Counted from the stretch's first letter, positions 19,444 through 25,805 are shown. The stretch: DNA of 64,000 bases from an uncultured Mycoplasmatota bacterium (GCA_946553095.1 CAMNRN010000001.1:58899-122898); one strand, 5' to 3'. Numbers and translations: made by a program. Notes: generated from the sequence alone by a model not told the origin.

Positions 19444-20292
19444 ATGAAAAAGAAAAGTATGGCTTTAGGAGCATTATTAATGGCAGTTGCAGTTACTGGA
19501 TATTCAGTAAGTGGAACATATGCTAAATATACATCTTCTATAGATATTACTGATGAAGCTAGAGTAGCTAAATGGGGATTTAATGCAACAGATAAAAATG
19601 GTAATCTTACTACAGAAAATACTATTGATTTATTCAGCCAATCATATTCAATTAATGGAACTGATAATGAACTAAAATATGTTCTATCTTCAAACACTGA
19701 TAAGGTGGTTGCACCAGGAACAAAAGGTTCTTATGAATTCCAACTTGAAGGTGAAGTTGAAACTAGATATGCATTATTATTCGCTATTGATGAAAATAAA
19801 AATACTGATATAGTAGTTTACTACTCATTAGATGCTGAAGGAAATATTGACAGAAAATCTACTACTCCATTTGACGGAGCATTAGAATATCGTCCAATTA
19901 GATATACAGTAAAATATACTAGAGGAGATAGCGAAGAAGACTTAACTAAAGGACTTTTGACAAATCTAGATTCTAAAACTCTAATTAACGCTTTAAAAGG
20001 CGAAACTGAAAGAGAATATGCAGCTGGAGAATTTAATCAAAAGTATGTAATTAGTTGGGAATGGGCACCTAGAAATGCAACAAATAATGCAACAGATAAA
20101 GGCGCATTATCAAAAACAAATGTAGACATTCTAGATACATTTGCTGGACAAGAAATTGTAAAAGCAATGAACGAAGAAGGAAATACATTTGGTCAAGTAA
20201 AATTTGATGTTAAGATTACTGCTAACCAAGTTACTGCTAACCAAGCTGATTATAATGATGATGGTGAATCAAGTAAAGCAGTTGTTAAATAA
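19444..20292 (+). CDS. TasA/camelysin-like protein with SipW-cognate-type signal peptide (putative fibre subunit)
   Basis: 282 aa from ATG 19444 (RBS AAAGGAGGTG); the track ORF starts upstream at 19336. MKKKSMALGALLMAVAVTGYSVSGTYAKYTSS resembles the GGGTWAAFND region of TasA and the TIGR04088 class. Sits immediately downstream of the sipW homolog. Confidence 0.55.
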   Translation: MKKKSMALGALLMAVAVTGYSVSGTYAKYTSSIDITDEARVAKWGFNATDKNGNLTTENTIDLFSQSYSINGTDNELKYVLSSNTDKVVAPGTKGSYEFQLEGEVETRYALLFAIDENKNTDIVVYYSLDAEGNIDRKSTTPFDGALEYRPIRYTVKYTRGDSEEDLTKGLLTNLDSKTLINALKGETEREYAAGEFNQKYVISWEWAPRNATNNATDKGALSKTNVDILDTFAGQEIVKAMNEEGNTFGQVKFDVKITANQVTANQADYNDDGESSKAVVK

Positions 20293-20310
20293 TTATAAAT
20301 TGACATCAAT

Positions 20311-20363
20311 GGAAGTTGTTTAACTTCCAAATAAGCCTATGAACGTCATAGGTTTATTTGGAA
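20311..20363 (+). terminator. compound hairpin / intrinsic terminator between the TasA-like gene and the giant adhesin gene
   Basis: GGAAGTT-4nt-AACTTCC (20311-20328) overlaps a long stem TTCCAAATAAGCCTATGA-acg-TCATAGGtTTATTTGGAA (20325-20363) that ends in a T-rich tract. Confidence 0.55.
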
Positions 20364-20395
20364 ACTAAATACTGAATAAGGGGAGGAGCCAATCT

Positions 20396-23300
20396 ATGAC
20401 AAATTATTATAAAGATAATAAAAAACATCAAGAAGAAAAAGATCACAGCACTAGAAATAGAATAATAATGGTTATCATACTTATAATAATAATTCTTCTT
20501 TTGATAACAAGTTGTAGCTGCACATCAAAATTTTGGGGCAAAATTGGCGACTGGTTCAAAGGAGAAGGAAATTATACTGTAGAACCTGGAACTAATGATC
20601 CAGAACAGATAACTAATCAAGAACTTAAATTTGACAAAGATTTTTTAGAATTATCATTAAGTGATATAAATGCCAAATTAGGATTTTCGTACAAGAATAT
20701 AAGTCCTAATGAATTTGCATGTACAACAAGTGATGCTGATATAGCAACTTGTTATGTGGTAGACGACTATGTTGTAATTAATCCCAAAGCAGTTGGAGAG
20801 GTAATTGTTACTTTAAAAGCATTGACAAATGGGAAAACATATGAAGCGACAGCAAAGGTTCAAATTAATGATGCAACAAGATATATTTCTTTATCAAGTA
20901 AAAAAGGAACAATTAATTTAGCATACGGAAATAAAAAGACAATAACATATAAACTAGTAGGTTTAACAGGAGAAGTAAAAGTATCAACAAGCGACAAATC
21001 AATTGCTACAGCAACCGTGGAAAACGGAATAATAAAGATTACAGGTCATAAAGTTGGTACAGCAGAAATAACTGTATCCATTGATTATAATGGTAAGACT
21101 TACACAGAAATATACAAAATTAAAGTAATTGATAGTAAAAATGATCCAAACTATGGTGTTGGTGATGACATTGAAGATGATAAATTAGATAGTGATTCAT
21201 CACTAAAGAGTCTAACAACAAACAAAGGGACATTAAATTTTGATCCAAATACGTTGACATATTATGTTGGTGTAAGTGGTTGGACATGGAATATCACATT
21301 AAAAGCTGAAGCTAAGAGTCCTAAAGCGACAATAACTTATACATTTAATGGTGAAACCGTTGACGATTTAAATAAATTAAAATTAAAAACTGGCGATAAT
21401 GTTGTGACAATTACAGTAACTGCCGAAGACGGAAGTAAAACAACATATACAGTAATTATTAATAAAGCAAAATCAAGTAATGATTACTTAAAGAATATAA
21501 CAACAAACAAGGGAACATTAAGTCCTAAGTTTAATAAAAATACACTAGATTATAAAATAGATGTTGATTATAAAACAAGTATAATAGATTTAGAAGCGAT
21601 ACCAAAAAGTAAAAAAGCCACATTAACATACACATTTAATGGTGTAACAGTAGATGACTTAAGCAAATTAAATCTATTAACAGGACCAAACGTTGTCAAA
21701 ATTACAGTTACAGCTGAAGATGGTTCGACAAGAACATACAGAGTAGTCATCAATAAAGCTCAAGCTCCAGGTGTAATCGATAACAACAGTCGTTTATCAT
21801 CACTAACTGATTCTCTAGGAAAAATAGATTTTGATCCATTTGTTACAGATTATAATATTGGTGTTTCTAGCGATACAGATAGAATAACATTAAATGCCAT
21901 TCCAAGTAGTGATAAAGCAACAGTTAAATATACTTATAATGGTAAAACAGTAACGGATTTAAATGATTTAGAATTAGCACCTGGTGACAATAAAGTCGTA
22001 ATAACAGTTATTGCTGAAGATGGTAGTAAAACAACATATACAGTAAATATTAACAAAGCAACTGAAACTGGAAGTACTTCATTATCAAATTTAGAAGTAT
22101 TAGGAAATGCTGGTAAATTAAAACCAAACTTTAATGAAGATACTTTAAACTATGAAATAAATGTAGACAAAGATGTCGATAAAATAAGTTTAAGAGCAAC
22201 ACCAAAAGATACAGGTTCAAAATTAACTTATACATTCAATGGCCAAACAGTAGATTCTCTAAAAGATTTAGAGCTTCAAGATGGACCAAACAGAGTTGTA
22301 ATAACAGTAACAGATAAAGATGGATTAACTAGAGATTACACTGTTGTTATAAATAAGGAATCAAATAAGAATACAGATGTTTCCTTAAAAGACTTGACAG
22401 TTGATGGTGAATCTATTATAGATACATTCCAAACAACAGTAGATTCTAACAAGAATCAAATAACAATTGTTGCTACACCAAATGATCCAAATGCTAAAGT
22501 ATCATATATCTACAATGGTGTAGAATATAAAGACGTTAATGAATTAAAAATGGATTTAAAAACCGGACCTAATGTTGTTCAAGTAGTAGTAACAGCAGAA
22601 GACGGAATTACCAAAAAACATTATGAAGCGATAATCACTAAAGAAGCTGCTAATAATGTTGGTGTAGAAATAAAAATTGATGGAACTATTATAGATGCTC
22701 CATATGAAATAAATGTTGATTCTGAAACAGATAGTGTTAAACTATCAGCTATACCAGTAGATAAAAATGCTAAAATTATTTACAATGGAAAAGAATACAA
22801 TAGTTTAGAAGATATAGTTGTAGATGTACCAAACTTTGGTGAAAATAAAGTAAGCTTTACAGTTGTAGCTGAAGATGGCACAGAAGAAGAATATACTATA
22901 ACAATTAATAAAAAAGCACCAGTGTATGAAATAAAAATCAAAGAAAATGAAGTTTATTATCTAGAAGATTACACACCAGATGCTCCATATTATATAAAGT
23001 ATGATTTATATAAAGATGGAAAACTGACAAATGAAGATATTAATGCTAGTGATATTAGCATAGATAATGCTTCAGTTGAAATAGTAAAAATAGATGGTGA
23101 AAATTTAATCAAAGTAACACCAAATAAAGATGTTAAAGCTGGCGATAAAGCCACAGTAACAATAAAATATCAAGGAACAACAGCTGAATGTGAAGTAAAA
23201 TTCGATATTCATGATTATACTCTAAATATAGATCCAAAAGAATATGATTTAAATTATTCAAGTGAAGGTGGAAATTCTAAAGATGATATTAAAACCTTTA

Positions 23301-24544: not shown

Positions 24545-24555
24545 AAGGGGTTAAA

Positions 24556-25242
24556 ATGAAAAGGATAAAAAAAATTGGTATTGCCCTAGTAGGAATACTC
24601 TTAATGTTCATATTAACATACAATATATATAACTTTGTTAGTTTAAAGTTTTTACACAAAGATCTAGCAACTGTAAATGGATATGCTCCATTAGAAGTAG
24701 TATCAGGTTCTATGGAACCAACTATTAAAAAAGGAGACATAATAATTATCAACACTAAAGACAATGACTATAAAATTGGAGATATAATAACTTTCTACGA
24801 TCCAAAAGACAAGACAAGTTTTATAACTCACAGAATTATAAGTGTTGAAGATGGGAAGATGAGAACTCAAGGAGATAACAATAAATCTGAGGATCAATCA
24901 CTTCTCACTGAAAAAGACATAATAGGAAAATATGTTTTCAAGATTAAGAACGGTGGTATCGTTTTGAAATCATTTCAAAGTCCATTTACAATGATTATGA
25001 TATTTGTAATAGGTATACTAGTTTGTATATTGATGAGTACAGACCAAGATGGGCAACCAATTCTAGATGAAGAAGAAAAAGAATATCAAGAATTCTTGAA
25101 AGCTAAACAAGAAAAAGATAAGAAAACTTCTTCGACAAACAAAAAAGGTGATGATACTAAAAAGAAAAAACAAACGTTACCGAAGAAAAAGACAACTGGC
25201 AAAAAGACATCAAGTAATAAGAAAGTAACGAAAAATAAGTAG
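24556..25242 (+). CDS. sipW: second Sec11/SipW-type signal peptidase I with K-rich C-terminal tail
   Basis: ATG 24556 (MKRIKKIGIAL) sits 12 nt past the adhesin stop. SGSMEP and THRI catalytic motifs, second TM, KK-rich tail. Paralog of 18505-19320. Confidence 0.8.
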   Translation: MKRIKKIGIALVGILLMFILTYNIYNFVSLKFLHKDLATVNGYAPLEVVSGSMEPTIKKGDIIIINTKDNDYKIGDIITFYDPKDKTSFITHRIISVEDGKMRTQGDNNKSEDQSLLTEKDIIGKYVFKIKNGGIVLKSFQSPFTMIMIFVIGILVCILMSTDQDGQPILDEEEKEYQEFLKAKQEKDKKTSSTNKKGDDTKKKKQTLPKKKTTGKKTSSNKKVTKNK

Positions 25243-25253
25243 GTGAAAATATT

Positions 25254-25805
25254 ATGAAAGGATTATTACATAGTAAGAGATTTAAACAAAATTTAGCAAA
25301 ATGGTTATTTATGTATGTAGGGGTTATGATGCTTCTTACTACTGTAATAACCTATTCAAAATACATATCAAGTTTTGGCGTTTCAGATGAAGCAAGATCA
25401 ACAAAGTTCTCTGTAAAAATTAAACCAGATGACAATATAACTTGCGATGGAGTAACATGTAACTTAGGAAGTACAAGACCAACGAGTTTAATTGAATACG
25501 GTTTTACAATAAATGTTGAAGAAGTGGAAGTAACATCAGATTTATACATCACGATTACACTAGATGATTCATTCAAATTTGATACTAATGAAGGAATTAC
25601 TTCAAATGTTGATTTCAGTGAAAATGACTATGAAACCAACCAACCAAATATTAAAACAATTCATTATAAAGTTGATTTAAAAGAAGATTCAATCAAAGAT
25701 ATTCATTTCAATCTTAAGATAAGAGCAAAAGATATATATCAAAAGTTTGACTCTGAAGATAAAGAAATTGTAACAATAGGCTACTCAATAAAACAAGTAA
25801 AATAA
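25254..25805 (+). CDS. short TasA-like paralog with SipW-cognate-type signal peptide (183 aa)
   Basis: N-terminal ...VITYSKYISSFGVSDEARSTKFSV shares the motif TY.KY.SS....DEAR..K[FW] with 19444-20292. Directly downstream of the second sipW. Confidence 0.5.
   Translation: MKGLLHSKRFKQNLAKWLFMYVGVMMLLTTVITYSKYISSFGVSDEARSTKFSVKIKPDDNITCDGVTCNLGSTRPTSLIEYGFTINVEEVEVTSDLYITITLDDSFKFDTNEGITSNVDFSENDYETNQPNIKTIHYKVDLKEDSIKDIHFNLKIRAKDIYQKFDSEDKEIVTIGYSIKQVK

Follow-up and report, generated by a model that had tools for sequence, protein, structure and literature searches.

The question raised by this locus is whether two predicted secreted proteins of different size, A and B, belong to one surface structure, and what the segment shared by their N-termini might contribute to it. 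Within the window (the whole 64-kb stretch of DNA that was analysed), the two genes and the shared segments are located as follows:

19444..20292, + strand: A, 282-aa predicted major fibre subunit (homologues, AF2, Foldseek)
19516..19575, + strand: shared block in A, T25-W44, TYAKYTSSIDITDEARVAKW (BLASTP, hhalign, conservation, -3/-1 site)
25254..25805, + strand: B, 183-aa predicted minor subunit, TapA-like initiator/adapter (homologues, AF2, Foldseek)
25350..25409, + strand: shared block in B, T33-F52, TYSKYISSFGVSDEARSTKF (BLASTP, hhalign, -3/-1 site, HMM coordinates)

The peptides of A and B quoted in the first-pass annotation were both found in place, and the two proteins have a block of 21 residues in common (T-Y-[AS]-K-Y-x-S..D.AR..K-[WF]). 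Pairwise BLASTP of A against B gave an N-terminal match only (14/40 identities, E 2e-5), and hhalign comparison of the family A and family B profiles (84 and 89 homologues) resulted in a probability of 95% (E 2.6e-8). When only the N-termini were compared profile to profile, 21 columns (A T25-G45 with B T33-S53) were aligned with a consensus identity of 52%, a probability of 96.8% and an E-value of 2.3e-10. The cores without the block gave an E-value of 0.048 and a probability of 1% in profile-profile comparison, so that similarity between them was not detectable, and A and B therefore share a module and not a whole fold. The conserved block that had been proposed is real, far beyond chance and limited to the segment in which it was first seen; the term paralogous is justified for the block but not for the cores. 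No further copy of the motif was found in the six-frame translation of the whole window, and in related genomes the family-A HMM matched B proteins in 39 loci at HMM positions ~26-51 only. Conservation of A is highest in the block (residues 21-30, mean top-residue frequency 0.94 versus 0.1-0.6 in the core; invariant residues V22, G24, T25, Y26, A27, Y29, A39 and A42), and the block of B lies within the best-conserved stretch of that protein (residues 1-40, 0.79-0.91).

In A, the signal peptide (aa 1-27) and the block are followed by a core that forms a beta-sandwich with helical inserts; in B, the signal peptide (35 aa, invariant) and the block lead into a small sandwich of the Ig-like type. 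Each start codon has a supporting Shine-Dalgarno sequence, namely AAAGGAGGTG for ATG 19444 and TAGGTGA for ATG 25254. According to the -3/-1 rule, cleavage (indicated by ↓) is predicted after residue 27 of A (SGTYA↓KY) and after residue 35 of B (VITYS↓KY), and the sole -3/-1 site common to both proteins marks the start of the block (TYA↓KY and TYS↓KY). This bears out, for A as well as for B, the earlier statement that the block directly follows the hydrophobic core, and its proposed placement at the GGGTWAAFND position of TasA is likewise supported, both junctions being equivalent in position to GTWA↓AF. As the mature N-terminus of TasA is A28, where chain 8aur begins, the A/B junction matches the verified GGTWA↓AFND of TasA. 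The signal-peptide geometry of A is also that of TasA, with a +3 n-region, an uncharged span to residue 27 and T-aromatic-A↓x-aromatic. Conservation peaks at the predicted junction (positions -7 to +3), and in A and B it extends to position +17 (D.AR..K[WF]). Judged from sequence, A and B would both be cleaved at this site. In the case of B, cleavage is less certain, since its signal peptide shows no variation from Met1 onwards and was modelled as part of one helix through the junction (residues 8-42; pLDDT ~95-97 for residues 11-30). Such invariance is odd for a signal peptide that is cut off and discarded.

A and B are each encoded directly downstream of their own SipW-like peptidase gene, in a cassette with the order sip1, A, anchor, sip2, B and a large variable protein C:

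18505..19320, + strand: sip1, signal peptidase I of the SipW-like (archaeal/ER) type, with A as presumed substrate (TIGR02228, 89.5 bits)
20396..24544, + strand: 1382-aa predicted anchor/stalk protein (PF12733, N-terminal signal, synteny)
23951..24544, + strand: C-terminal A-type core domain of the anchor, predicted acceptor-only (hhalign versus family A)
24556..25242, + strand: sip2, second signal peptidase I of the SipW-like type, with B as presumed substrate (TIGR02228, 92.7 bits)
25825..28080, + strand: C, 751-aa variable secreted protein, candidate tip subunit (3' of B, start context)

Both peptidases exceed the curated TIGR02228 cutoff of 51.85 bits and are predicted to be archaeal/ER-type signal peptidases I. 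They are 35% identical and contain the catalytic Ser and His motifs (SGSME, THR), with GDAN seen in sip1, where two TM segments and a C-terminal tail rich in Lys, Ser and Thr are also present; the likely start of sip2 is ATG 24556, after AAAGGGG. With 101.8 (sip1) and 76.5 bits (sip2), they fall below the cutoff of 190 of the Bacillus SipW equivalog NF046067 and are therefore SipW-like but not SipW orthologues. In related loci, sip1 orthologues always precede A and sip2 orthologues always precede B, which suggests sip1-A and sip2-B as peptidase-substrate pairs. The designation of A and B as SipW-cognate-type proteins is thus apt with regard to the SipW-like peptidase upstream of each, but not as a curated class, as TIGR04088, TIGR04089 and TIGR04090 gave no match at E<=10 with A, B, N-terminal 59-aa fragments or the 84 homologues. 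In the positive control, TasA matched TIGR04088 at 38 bits (cutoff 19), plus TIGR04090 and TIGR04089.

Of 77 related loci, 56 contain the whole cassette in this order and 10 more are cut by contig ends; all loci come from uncultured gut MAGs, and this fits a conserved, previously unannotated gene cassette of uncultured gut Bacilli. By HMM coordinates over the 77 loci, A, matched by the family-A HMM from position 2, is the sole cassette protein with both block and core, B has the block only, and the core only is present in the anchor (positions 69-225 of the HMM in orthologues) and in Clostridial A' proteins (positions 47/53-243, E 1e-12 to 1e-16). The anchor, present in 66 of the 77 loci, has a TM/lipobox-like signal (LLLITSC) at its N-terminus and contains six Cadherin-like domains (PF12733, 7.5e-70, 6 copies) as well as further beta domains. 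Its N-terminal LITSC(SC)TS.FFGKIG is kept in orthologues, although the lipobox Cys is absent in 4 of 62. The C-terminal domain (motifs IPLF.., IYPGATGSY and WKW..NDTLDTKVG; block absent) aligned with family A in hhalign at E 8e-6 as a single sequence and at E 6e-5 as an orthologue profile. This core-only protein is always cell-anchored, by an N-terminal TM/lipobox in Bacilli or an LPXTG-type signal in the Clostridia relatives, where LPKTG, SPQTG or TPKTG is found at the C-terminus with a TM segment and a basic tail, and where one protein exceeds the TIGR01167 cutoff. Next to B on the 3' side, at least 45 related loci carry a gene whose product has an h-region and, behind it, the pattern P.[TS].[SA]K[YF][IV]..AL.Y..LY. 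The junction of C (..PKTNS↓LFIDDKDTALIY) resembles that of A and B, and similarity of C to the A/B N-termini is weak (E 5e-4 to 2e-3, with the alignment anchored on the pattern). The predicted system is larger than the two proteins first noticed, comprising also a predicted acceptor-only anchor, a third secreted protein and two peptidases.

Homologue searches retrieved 294 homologues of A and 139 of B, and at E<=1e-3 a set of 1.84 billion representatives contained 6029 clusters related to A. In the AF2 model of A (pLDDT 76.6), the core is confident (>87) and the block is disordered in the monomer (pLDDT<50 for residues 19-38); the predicted donor strand runs from K28 to ~W44. With this model, Foldseek returned the TasA fibre (8aur_A) as top match and as sole PDB match at E<=1e-3, albeit a weak one (E 8e-4). 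The model of B (pLDDT 84) matched Gram-positive pilin Ig domains, BslA and cohesins at TM ~0.4, its sandwich resembling Ig domains of RrgB, LrpA, EbpB and BcpA. Tandem duplications of A occur in several species, and gene A is followed by an RNA element:

20314..20373, + strand: long hairpin directly 3' of gene A (-29.5 kcal/mol, z -5.2)

Its core stem of 18 bp (20325-20363) lacks a trailing U-tract. The position of the hairpin is kept, as 90% of 80 A genes had z<-3 in the 90 nt 3' of the stop codon (median -6.1); the same test after sip2 and B gave medians of ~0.1-0.2. Hairpin and duplications would fit a subunit of high abundance and with it the earlier reading of the size difference, in which A is the major and B the minor subunit. 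The minor role of B also fits its TapA-like make-up of block plus small Ig-like sandwich (cf. PMC10151520).

We favour, with a probability of roughly 60%, the reading that the cassette encodes a chaperone-free, TasA/TapA-like donor-strand fibre in which the block is the donor strand (N-terminal extension). The generic make-up of such a system, in which subunits carry both an N-terminal extension and an acceptor core while terminal parts have one of them missing, is found in the predicted proteins; polymerisation, strand insertion and subunit order are what we infer from it. A, B and C would be exported by Sec and kept in the membrane by their signal peptides until cleavage behind T-x-[AS] by a dedicated SipW-type peptidase uncovers K-Y-..., with sip1 processing A, and sip2 processing B and probably C. 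The strand uncovered in one subunit would then enter the next A-type core, whose beta-sandwich is incomplete. Having both strand and core, A would form the shaft. The 1382-aa protein, whose core lacks a strand and which is membrane- or lipid-anchored via a cadherin-repeat stalk, would be the terminal acceptor and cell anchor, and B, with its strand on an unrelated small Ig-like domain, could dock into an A core but not extend an A-type chain, as expected for a TapA-like initiator, cap or adapter. C is a possible tip. A more elaborate version remains tentative and is rather less probable than its negation: a complete, chaperone-free donor-strand pilus of four parts, with the tip formed by C, the adapter by B, the shaft by A and the base by an acceptor with a lipid or LPXTG anchor. 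Its subunits would have no sequence relationship to TasA and would come from a dark family of ~6000 clusters, and two substrate-specific peptidases might gate assembly, sip2 at initiation (B, C) and sip1 at elongation (A). If true, this would be the first surface-fibre system for uncultured, reduced-genome gut Bacilli and 'Tenericutes'-labelled lineages.

Alternatively, the block might mainly be an extended recognition or processing determinant for SipW-type peptidases, and A, B and C monomeric surface or matrix proteins. The conservation peak around the junction and the similar [TS]-x-[SA]↓K-[YF] junction in the third family, C, would agree with this. However, signal peptidase I normally reads far less than +17 downstream of the cut, the distance to which conservation of A and B runs. 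Moreover, A and B differ completely upstream of the cut and each has its own peptidase, and the shared downstream part therefore points to a shared downstream partner. As this explanation also leaves unaccounted for a cell-anchored, core-only paralogue across loci and the match of A to the TasA fibre fold, we consider it unlikely. Slightly less probable still is that B stays uncleaved as a signal-anchor. It would then remain bound to the membrane as a nucleator or terminator, its juxtamembrane block docking at the membrane surface into an A core. The 79-91% conservation of its residues 1-40 includes the cytoplasmic n-region, the modelled helix passes through the junction, and BsaA oligomers have been reported to be membrane-anchored (PMC11580942). 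Yet the n/h/c layout of B is canonical, and its one good -3/-1 site is in register with that of A. In addition, B is preceded in every locus by sip2, apparently an active peptidase gene, and the cassette already possesses a separate membrane anchor with an acceptor domain.

That A and B are known Gram-positive pilins, sortase-assembled or type IV, is highly improbable. The likeness of the B sandwich to pilin Ig domains speaks for it, as do weak Pfam matches to ComP_DUS in eight A homologues, but the latter (E>=0.019) are far below threshold, and neither an LPXTG signal nor a pilin motif is present in A or B. Sortase-assembled pilins were rejected, as the LPXTG signal occurs only in the core-only protein of the Clostridial relatives and the cassette contains no sortase gene; type IV pilins were rejected because the class III signal (G↓F/M-x-x-x-E) is absent from both N-termini and the cassette has no prepilin peptidase gene.

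The preferred reading, a donor-strand fibre, rests in part on likeness to tapA-sipW-tasA of B. subtilis, where a dedicated SipW-type peptidase is also encoded beside its substrates. The mature N-terminus of the major subunit TasA, residues 28-38 of which are the donor strand, likewise begins directly after a T-aromatic-A cleavage site (PMC9674648). TapA, which initiates TasA filaments, likewise bears a TasA-like N-terminus on a different, complete Ig fold (PMC10151520), and the model of A, with its beta-sandwich core and helical inserts, has the TasA fibre as top, albeit weak, fold match. In contrast, sequence homology of A or B to TasA is not detectable, and the block itself differs (KYTS..D.TDEARVAKW in A, AFNDIKSKDATF in TasA). 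The TasA models PF12389 and NF046066 gave no match at E<=10 with the window proteins and 84 family-A members; in positive controls, TasA scored 513.8 bits on NF046066 and TasA relatives carry PF12389, and one Clostridial B-like protein reached PF12389 at E 0.12. When profiles of A, B and the anchor C-terminus were aligned by hhalign with a 110-sequence TasA profile, the best alignment (E 0.07, probability 0.8%) covered the last strand only (ITATQ versus EATQW), and single-sequence comparisons detected no homology. Two peptidases, one for each substrate group, a core-only anchor and a large third secreted protein set the present cassette apart, as do its hosts, which are uncultured gut Bacilli.

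The sipW-bsaA-bsaB(-bsaC) operon of C. perfringens similarly combines SipW, a major subunit and paralogues, one bearing LPXTG, and heteropolymeric donor-strand assembly has already been suggested for such operons (PMC11580942). The Clostridial relatives found here are arranged like BsaA/TasA operons. The cassette differs from BsaA operons in that A and B are not matched by the BsaA model TIGR04090, a vWA protein is absent, a second peptidase is present, and the anchor in Bacilli is an N-terminally anchored cadherin-repeat giant instead of an LPXTG protein. The Asn/Glu/Lys isopeptide triad of the BsaA 'exchange and lock' is not conserved in family A, whose (near-)invariant columns include E106 but neither Asn nor a core Lys, K28 being R in some members. 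Haloarchaeal Tat-fimbriae (TafA/C/E/F) follow the same parts logic of tip, adapter, shaft and anchor, with the tip giving the first donor strand and a dedicated S26-type signal peptidase, TafD, needed for processing (PMC11821415). They differ in being archaeal, exported by Tat instead of Sec and served by one peptidase. Chaperone-usher (type 1/P) and type V pili are built from a strand and an incomplete Ig fold, with terminal subunits lacking one, and the type V anchor is a lipoprotein. This modular logic is shared, but here chaperone, usher and outer membrane are absent, and proteolytic activation would be by signal peptidase I.

Further elements were located 5' of sip1 and of gene A:

16282..16309, + strand: promoter-like site TTGACA-16-TATAAT, 12/12 (consensus match only, 5' of first gene)
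16375..18492, + strand: 705-aa putative lipoprotein (2.9 copies of a 201-nt, 67-aa Cys/His-rich repeat)
19321..19443, + strand: structured intergenic leader 5' of gene A (RNA fold -29.9 kcal/mol, z -3.0)

No terminator-like site was found on the + strand between 16375 and 28148, and one transcript could therefore cover the cluster. Whether the 705-aa putative lipoprotein, with its repeat at 17307-17885 (90% matches), is part of the system is uncertain; in many related loci a variable lipoprotein gene encoding a lipobox-like N-terminus lies upstream of sip1, and sequence conservation among these upstream genes is only weak. Structure at the leader position recurs: in related loci, the 90 nt 3' of the sip1 stop codon have a median z of -3.3.

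The peptides quoted for A (282 aa, predicted major fibre subunit) and B (183 aa, predicted minor subunit) in the first-pass annotation, which had described two paralogous proteins with a conserved mature N-terminus, are both present in the window. When A was compared with B by BLASTP, the N-termini were the only part that aligned (14/40 identities, E 2e-5). Homologues were collected for A (n=294) and for B (n=139), of which subsets of 84 and 89, respectively, were aligned, and profile-profile comparison of the full families gave a probability of 95% and an E-value of 2.6e-8. Comparison of the N-termini only aligned 21 columns (T25-G45 of A with T33-S53 of B) with a probability of 96.8% and an E-value of 2.3e-10, whereas the cores only, that is the globular parts, gave an E-value of 0.048 and a probability of 1%. 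The similarity is therefore genuine yet confined to a block with the pattern T-Y-[AS]-K-Y-x-S-(4)-D-x-A-R-x-x-K-[WF]. Clearly, the reported likeness of the N-termini is confirmed, and the term paralogous holds for the block but not for the globular parts, the core-only comparison ruling out whole-protein paralogy of A and B.

The signal region of A consists of an n-region with a charge of +3 and an uncharged span up to residue 27, and its last -3/-1 site is SGTYA/KY (slash, predicted cut). Similarly, B has an n-region of +5, an uncharged span of 19 residues and a single -3/-1 site, VITYS/KY. TasA shows the same geometry: in 8aur, a structure of the fibre, the mature protein begins at A28, corresponding to cleavage at GGTWA/AFND, and residues 28-38 form its donor strand (PMC9674648). 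The earlier statement that the block lies where TasA has its mature N-terminus is therefore right, and cleavage of A and B at the start of the block is predicted.

In A, the block is the segment of highest conservation and the hydrophobic core preceding it varies. In B, the N-terminus is nearly invariant from Met1 onwards (MKGLLHSKRF..NL.KWLFMYVGVM.LLTTVITYSKYISS). Residues 1-35 of B (25254-25358), including the cytoplasmic n-region MKGLLHSKRF..NL.KW, are nearly invariant among homologues that are just 35-45% identical overall. Such invariance is unusual for a cleaved signal peptide and suggests a function of its own, for example in recognition by the paired peptidase sip2 or in the timing of release. 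Within A, a perfect 15-nt tandem duplication at 20216-20245 (two copies of TTACTGCTAACCAAG) doubles the conserved C-terminal strand motif to give ..ITANQVTANQ..

A and B are encoded in a co-directional cluster on the + strand, flanked by the ribosomal-protein/rpoA/rplQ operon and by parA-parB, with the following features:

16282-16309, + strand, perfect sigma-70-like promoter (consensus match)
16375-18492, + strand, 705-aa repeat-rich putative lipoprotein
18505-19320, + strand, sip1 peptidase (TIGR02228)
19444-20292, + strand, A, 282 aa
20396-24544, + strand, 1382-aa protein
24556-25242 (likely, from start context), + strand, sip2 peptidase
25254-25805, + strand, B, 183 aa
25825-28080, + strand, C, 751 aa (from start context)

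No terminator-like site was found on the + strand within the cluster. The operon side (ribosomal proteins, secY, adk, rpoA and rplQ) occupies 1-16300 and the parA-parB side 28148-29855; among the near-identical contigs L001-L003, rplQ lies upstream in L002 and parA follows C in L001 and probably in L003. The products of sip1 and sip2, which are 35% identical, score 89.5 and 92.7 bits with TIGR02228 (archaeal/ER-type signal peptidase I), both passing the cutoff of 51.85, and both resemble Bacillus SipW with scores under the cutoff of that model. Long tails rich in Lys, Ser and Thr end both peptidases after the second TM segment (19120-19320 and 25100-25242). In B. subtilis SipW, a C-terminal tail is described as having a separate role in biofilm formation. 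The 705-aa ORF contains 2.9 tandem copies of a 201-nt unit (17307-17885, 90% matches), each unit encoding a Cys/His-rich module of 67 aa, HEHDYTKE..YTCSNEDGKCD..CGYEDGVCQTCGH, and in related loci the upstream genes are likewise variable and lipoprotein-like, some having similar Cys/His motifs. None of the sources checked gave public names for the window proteins, and we found no account of this cassette in the literature.

We scanned 185,579 species genomes with a pattern and obtained 153 relatives, every one an uncultured MAG. The MAGs come from the guts of mice, rabbits and ruminants and mostly carry the labels Bacilli, Tenericutes, Mollicutes, Mycoplasma sp. or Erysipelotrichaceae, a few being Clostridia or Oscillospiraceae. 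Of 77 loci, 56 have the whole series sip1, A (1-2 copies), large cadherin-repeat protein, sip2 and B in this order, and contig ends interrupt it in 10 further ones; in the related loci sip1 orthologues are always upstream of A and sip2 orthologues always upstream of B. With the family-A profile, 6029 clusters (50% identity) were found at E<=1e-3 among 1.84 billion representatives. The cassette is widespread in uncultured gut Bacilli.

In coordinates of the family-A HMM, the match of A proteins begins at position 2, that of B proteins is limited to positions ~26-51, corresponding to the block, and that of the large 1382-aa protein, made by its C-terminus, is limited to positions ~69-225. Alignment of this C-terminus with family A by hhalign gave E-values of 8e-6 and 6e-5, and the motifs IYPGA.G.Y and W.KW..D.LDT..G are common to both. 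An internal donor strand in the 1382-aa protein was considered, as a single-sequence hhalign comparison placed YAIYSDEATDENEDPIVNW on the A block; the segment is not conserved in the orthologue profile, in which conservation is limited to the core motifs, and this candidate was rejected. The Clostridial loci have, directly downstream of A, a gene for a core-only protein of smaller size (HMM positions 47/53-243, E 1e-12 to 1e-16). Its C-terminal end consists of LPKTG, SPQTG or TPKTG, then a TM segment and a tail of basic residues, and one such protein passes the LPXTG-anchor cutoff. A second peptidase gene comes next, and then one for a B-like protein that contains ..G[LM]YARYT..D.ARV..FG. The core-only protein of Bacilli has a stalk of cadherin repeats and, at its N-terminus, a conserved TM/lipobox-like signal with the sequence LITSC(SC)TS.FFGKIG. 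With the LPXTG-type end in Clostridia and the N-terminal signal in Bacilli, the core-only, strandless protein is thus always the one tied to the cell. Not every anchor protein may be lipidated, as the Cys is missing from four orthologues (LITSG). A conserved juxtamembrane motif, TS.FFGKIGDLFRNEG, comes directly behind LITSC, the lipobox-like part of the anchor protein (20462-20560; orthologues in L005-L080). In summary, the first reading of the locus is supported in part, and the system is richer than noted: its cassette has six genes, with modules that complement one another and two peptidases, each paired with a substrate.

The relation to known fibre families was investigated with sequences and with models. 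No family A or B member matched PF12389 (Pfam TasA/camelysin) or the NCBIfam models for TasA, BsaA (TIGR04090) and SipW-dependent signal peptides (TIGR04088/04089), all of which are matched by TasA itself as positive control. A sequence link to TasA was rejected, every search being negative: Pfam/NCBIfam scans, which covered the window proteins together with 84 homologues and the relatives from Clostridia; PDB sequence searches with the A and B profiles; and hhalign comparisons with TasA and with a profile of 110 TasA sequences, the latter giving nothing significant with A, B or the anchor domain. Family A matches no Pfam or NCBIfam model, and the homologues listed all lack Pfam domains. The family B homologue P0204 has a precomputed Pfam accession, PF28357.1, that is absent from the Pfam copy scanned, in which its scan was empty; family B may therefore already have a model in a very recent release of Pfam. 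A BsaA-like isopeptide lock was discarded, family A having no conserved triad, and type IV or sortase pilin identity of A and B was ruled out on motifs. The AF2 model of A (pLDDT 76.6) has a confident core and values <50 for residues 19-38, the block region. The best PDB match of this model is 8aur_A, the TasA fibre, with an E-value of 8e-4, a probability of 0.97 and a TM of only ~0.3; no other match reached E<=1e-3. The model of B (pLDDT 84) consists of a long helix (residues 8-42) and a small seven-stranded sandwich that is similar to Ig-like domains of sortase pilins, BslA and cohesins (TM ~0.4). By sequence, A and B are not TasA/BsaA members, yet their function, judged by analogy, would resemble that of such members.

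We propose that the cassette builds a chaperone-free donor-strand fibre, by analogy with TasA/TapA, BsaA and haloarchaeal tafi. TapA combines a complete Ig fold with a TasA-like N-terminus and is an initiator only (PMC10151520), BsaA subunits are held by their signal peptide until release by SipW and their operons carry LPXTG paralogues (PMC11580942), and tafi have a peptidase of their own beside subunits for tip, adapter, shaft and anchor (PMC11821415). Here, A would form the shaft, the core-only protein would be terminal acceptor and anchor, B would act as initiator, cap or adapter via the same strand as A, and C, the large variable secreted protein, would possibly be the tip; processing of A would fall to sip1, and that of B and perhaps C to sip2. 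Within this scheme, we infer cleavage, strand insertion, subunit order and peptidase pairing. The block might alternatively reflect mere peptidase recognition; since the parts upstream of the cut are wholly different and A and B have their own peptidases, yet 17 downstream residues are common, a common docking partner is favoured. The main caveats on the fibre model are the weak fold match of A and the signal peptide of B, which is invariant and modelled as a helix. We consider the system a new, sequence-distinct form of the TasA/BsaA/tafi kind of fibre.

To our knowledge, TasA-/BsaA-type donor-strand fibres have so far been defined in archaea and in a small number of cultured Firmicutes, and we know of no adhesion or biofilm apparatus in the uncultured gut Bacilli hosts. 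Family A is large and unannotated, and the division of labour, with strand and core spread over three proteins, is clear and testable. The peptidase-substrate pairing opens experiments on how initiation, elongation and membrane anchoring are controlled in chaperone-free fibres, the cassette would be a candidate for host or particle attachment in gut Bacilli (mouse, rabbit and ruminant MAGs), and the block motif and cassette order provide annotation rules for thousands of hypothetical proteins.

The C family (500-1000 aa) is poorly conserved. In at least 45 loci, the gene after B encodes an h-region followed by P.[TS].[SA]K[YF][IV]..AL.Y..LY, a junction like that of A and B with a different segment downstream, for which statistical support is weak and anchored on a pattern chosen by the analyst. 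Homology of C, compared as a 754-aa protein, to A or B was rejected, no overall homology being found beyond this weak junction similarity.

Directly behind gene A lies a long hairpin (20314-20373, z -5.2), with no U-tract after it on the + strand of the window. Among 80 A genes of related loci, 90% have z<-3 in the 90 nt past the stop codon (median -6.1), compared to 90-nt medians of ~0.1-0.2 past the sip2 and B stops; the stretch between sip1 and A is likewise structured (median -3.3). The hairpin could act as an mRNA stabiliser or as an attenuator setting subunit stoichiometry, and hairpin and tandem A copies are consistent with A as the abundant subunit. The stems of the hairpins after A genes in related loci (L004-L080) measure 16-25 bp. 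A is tandemly duplicated in several species (L015, L017, L018, L019 and L022), and in L017 and L022 a strong hairpin follows the second A copy only.
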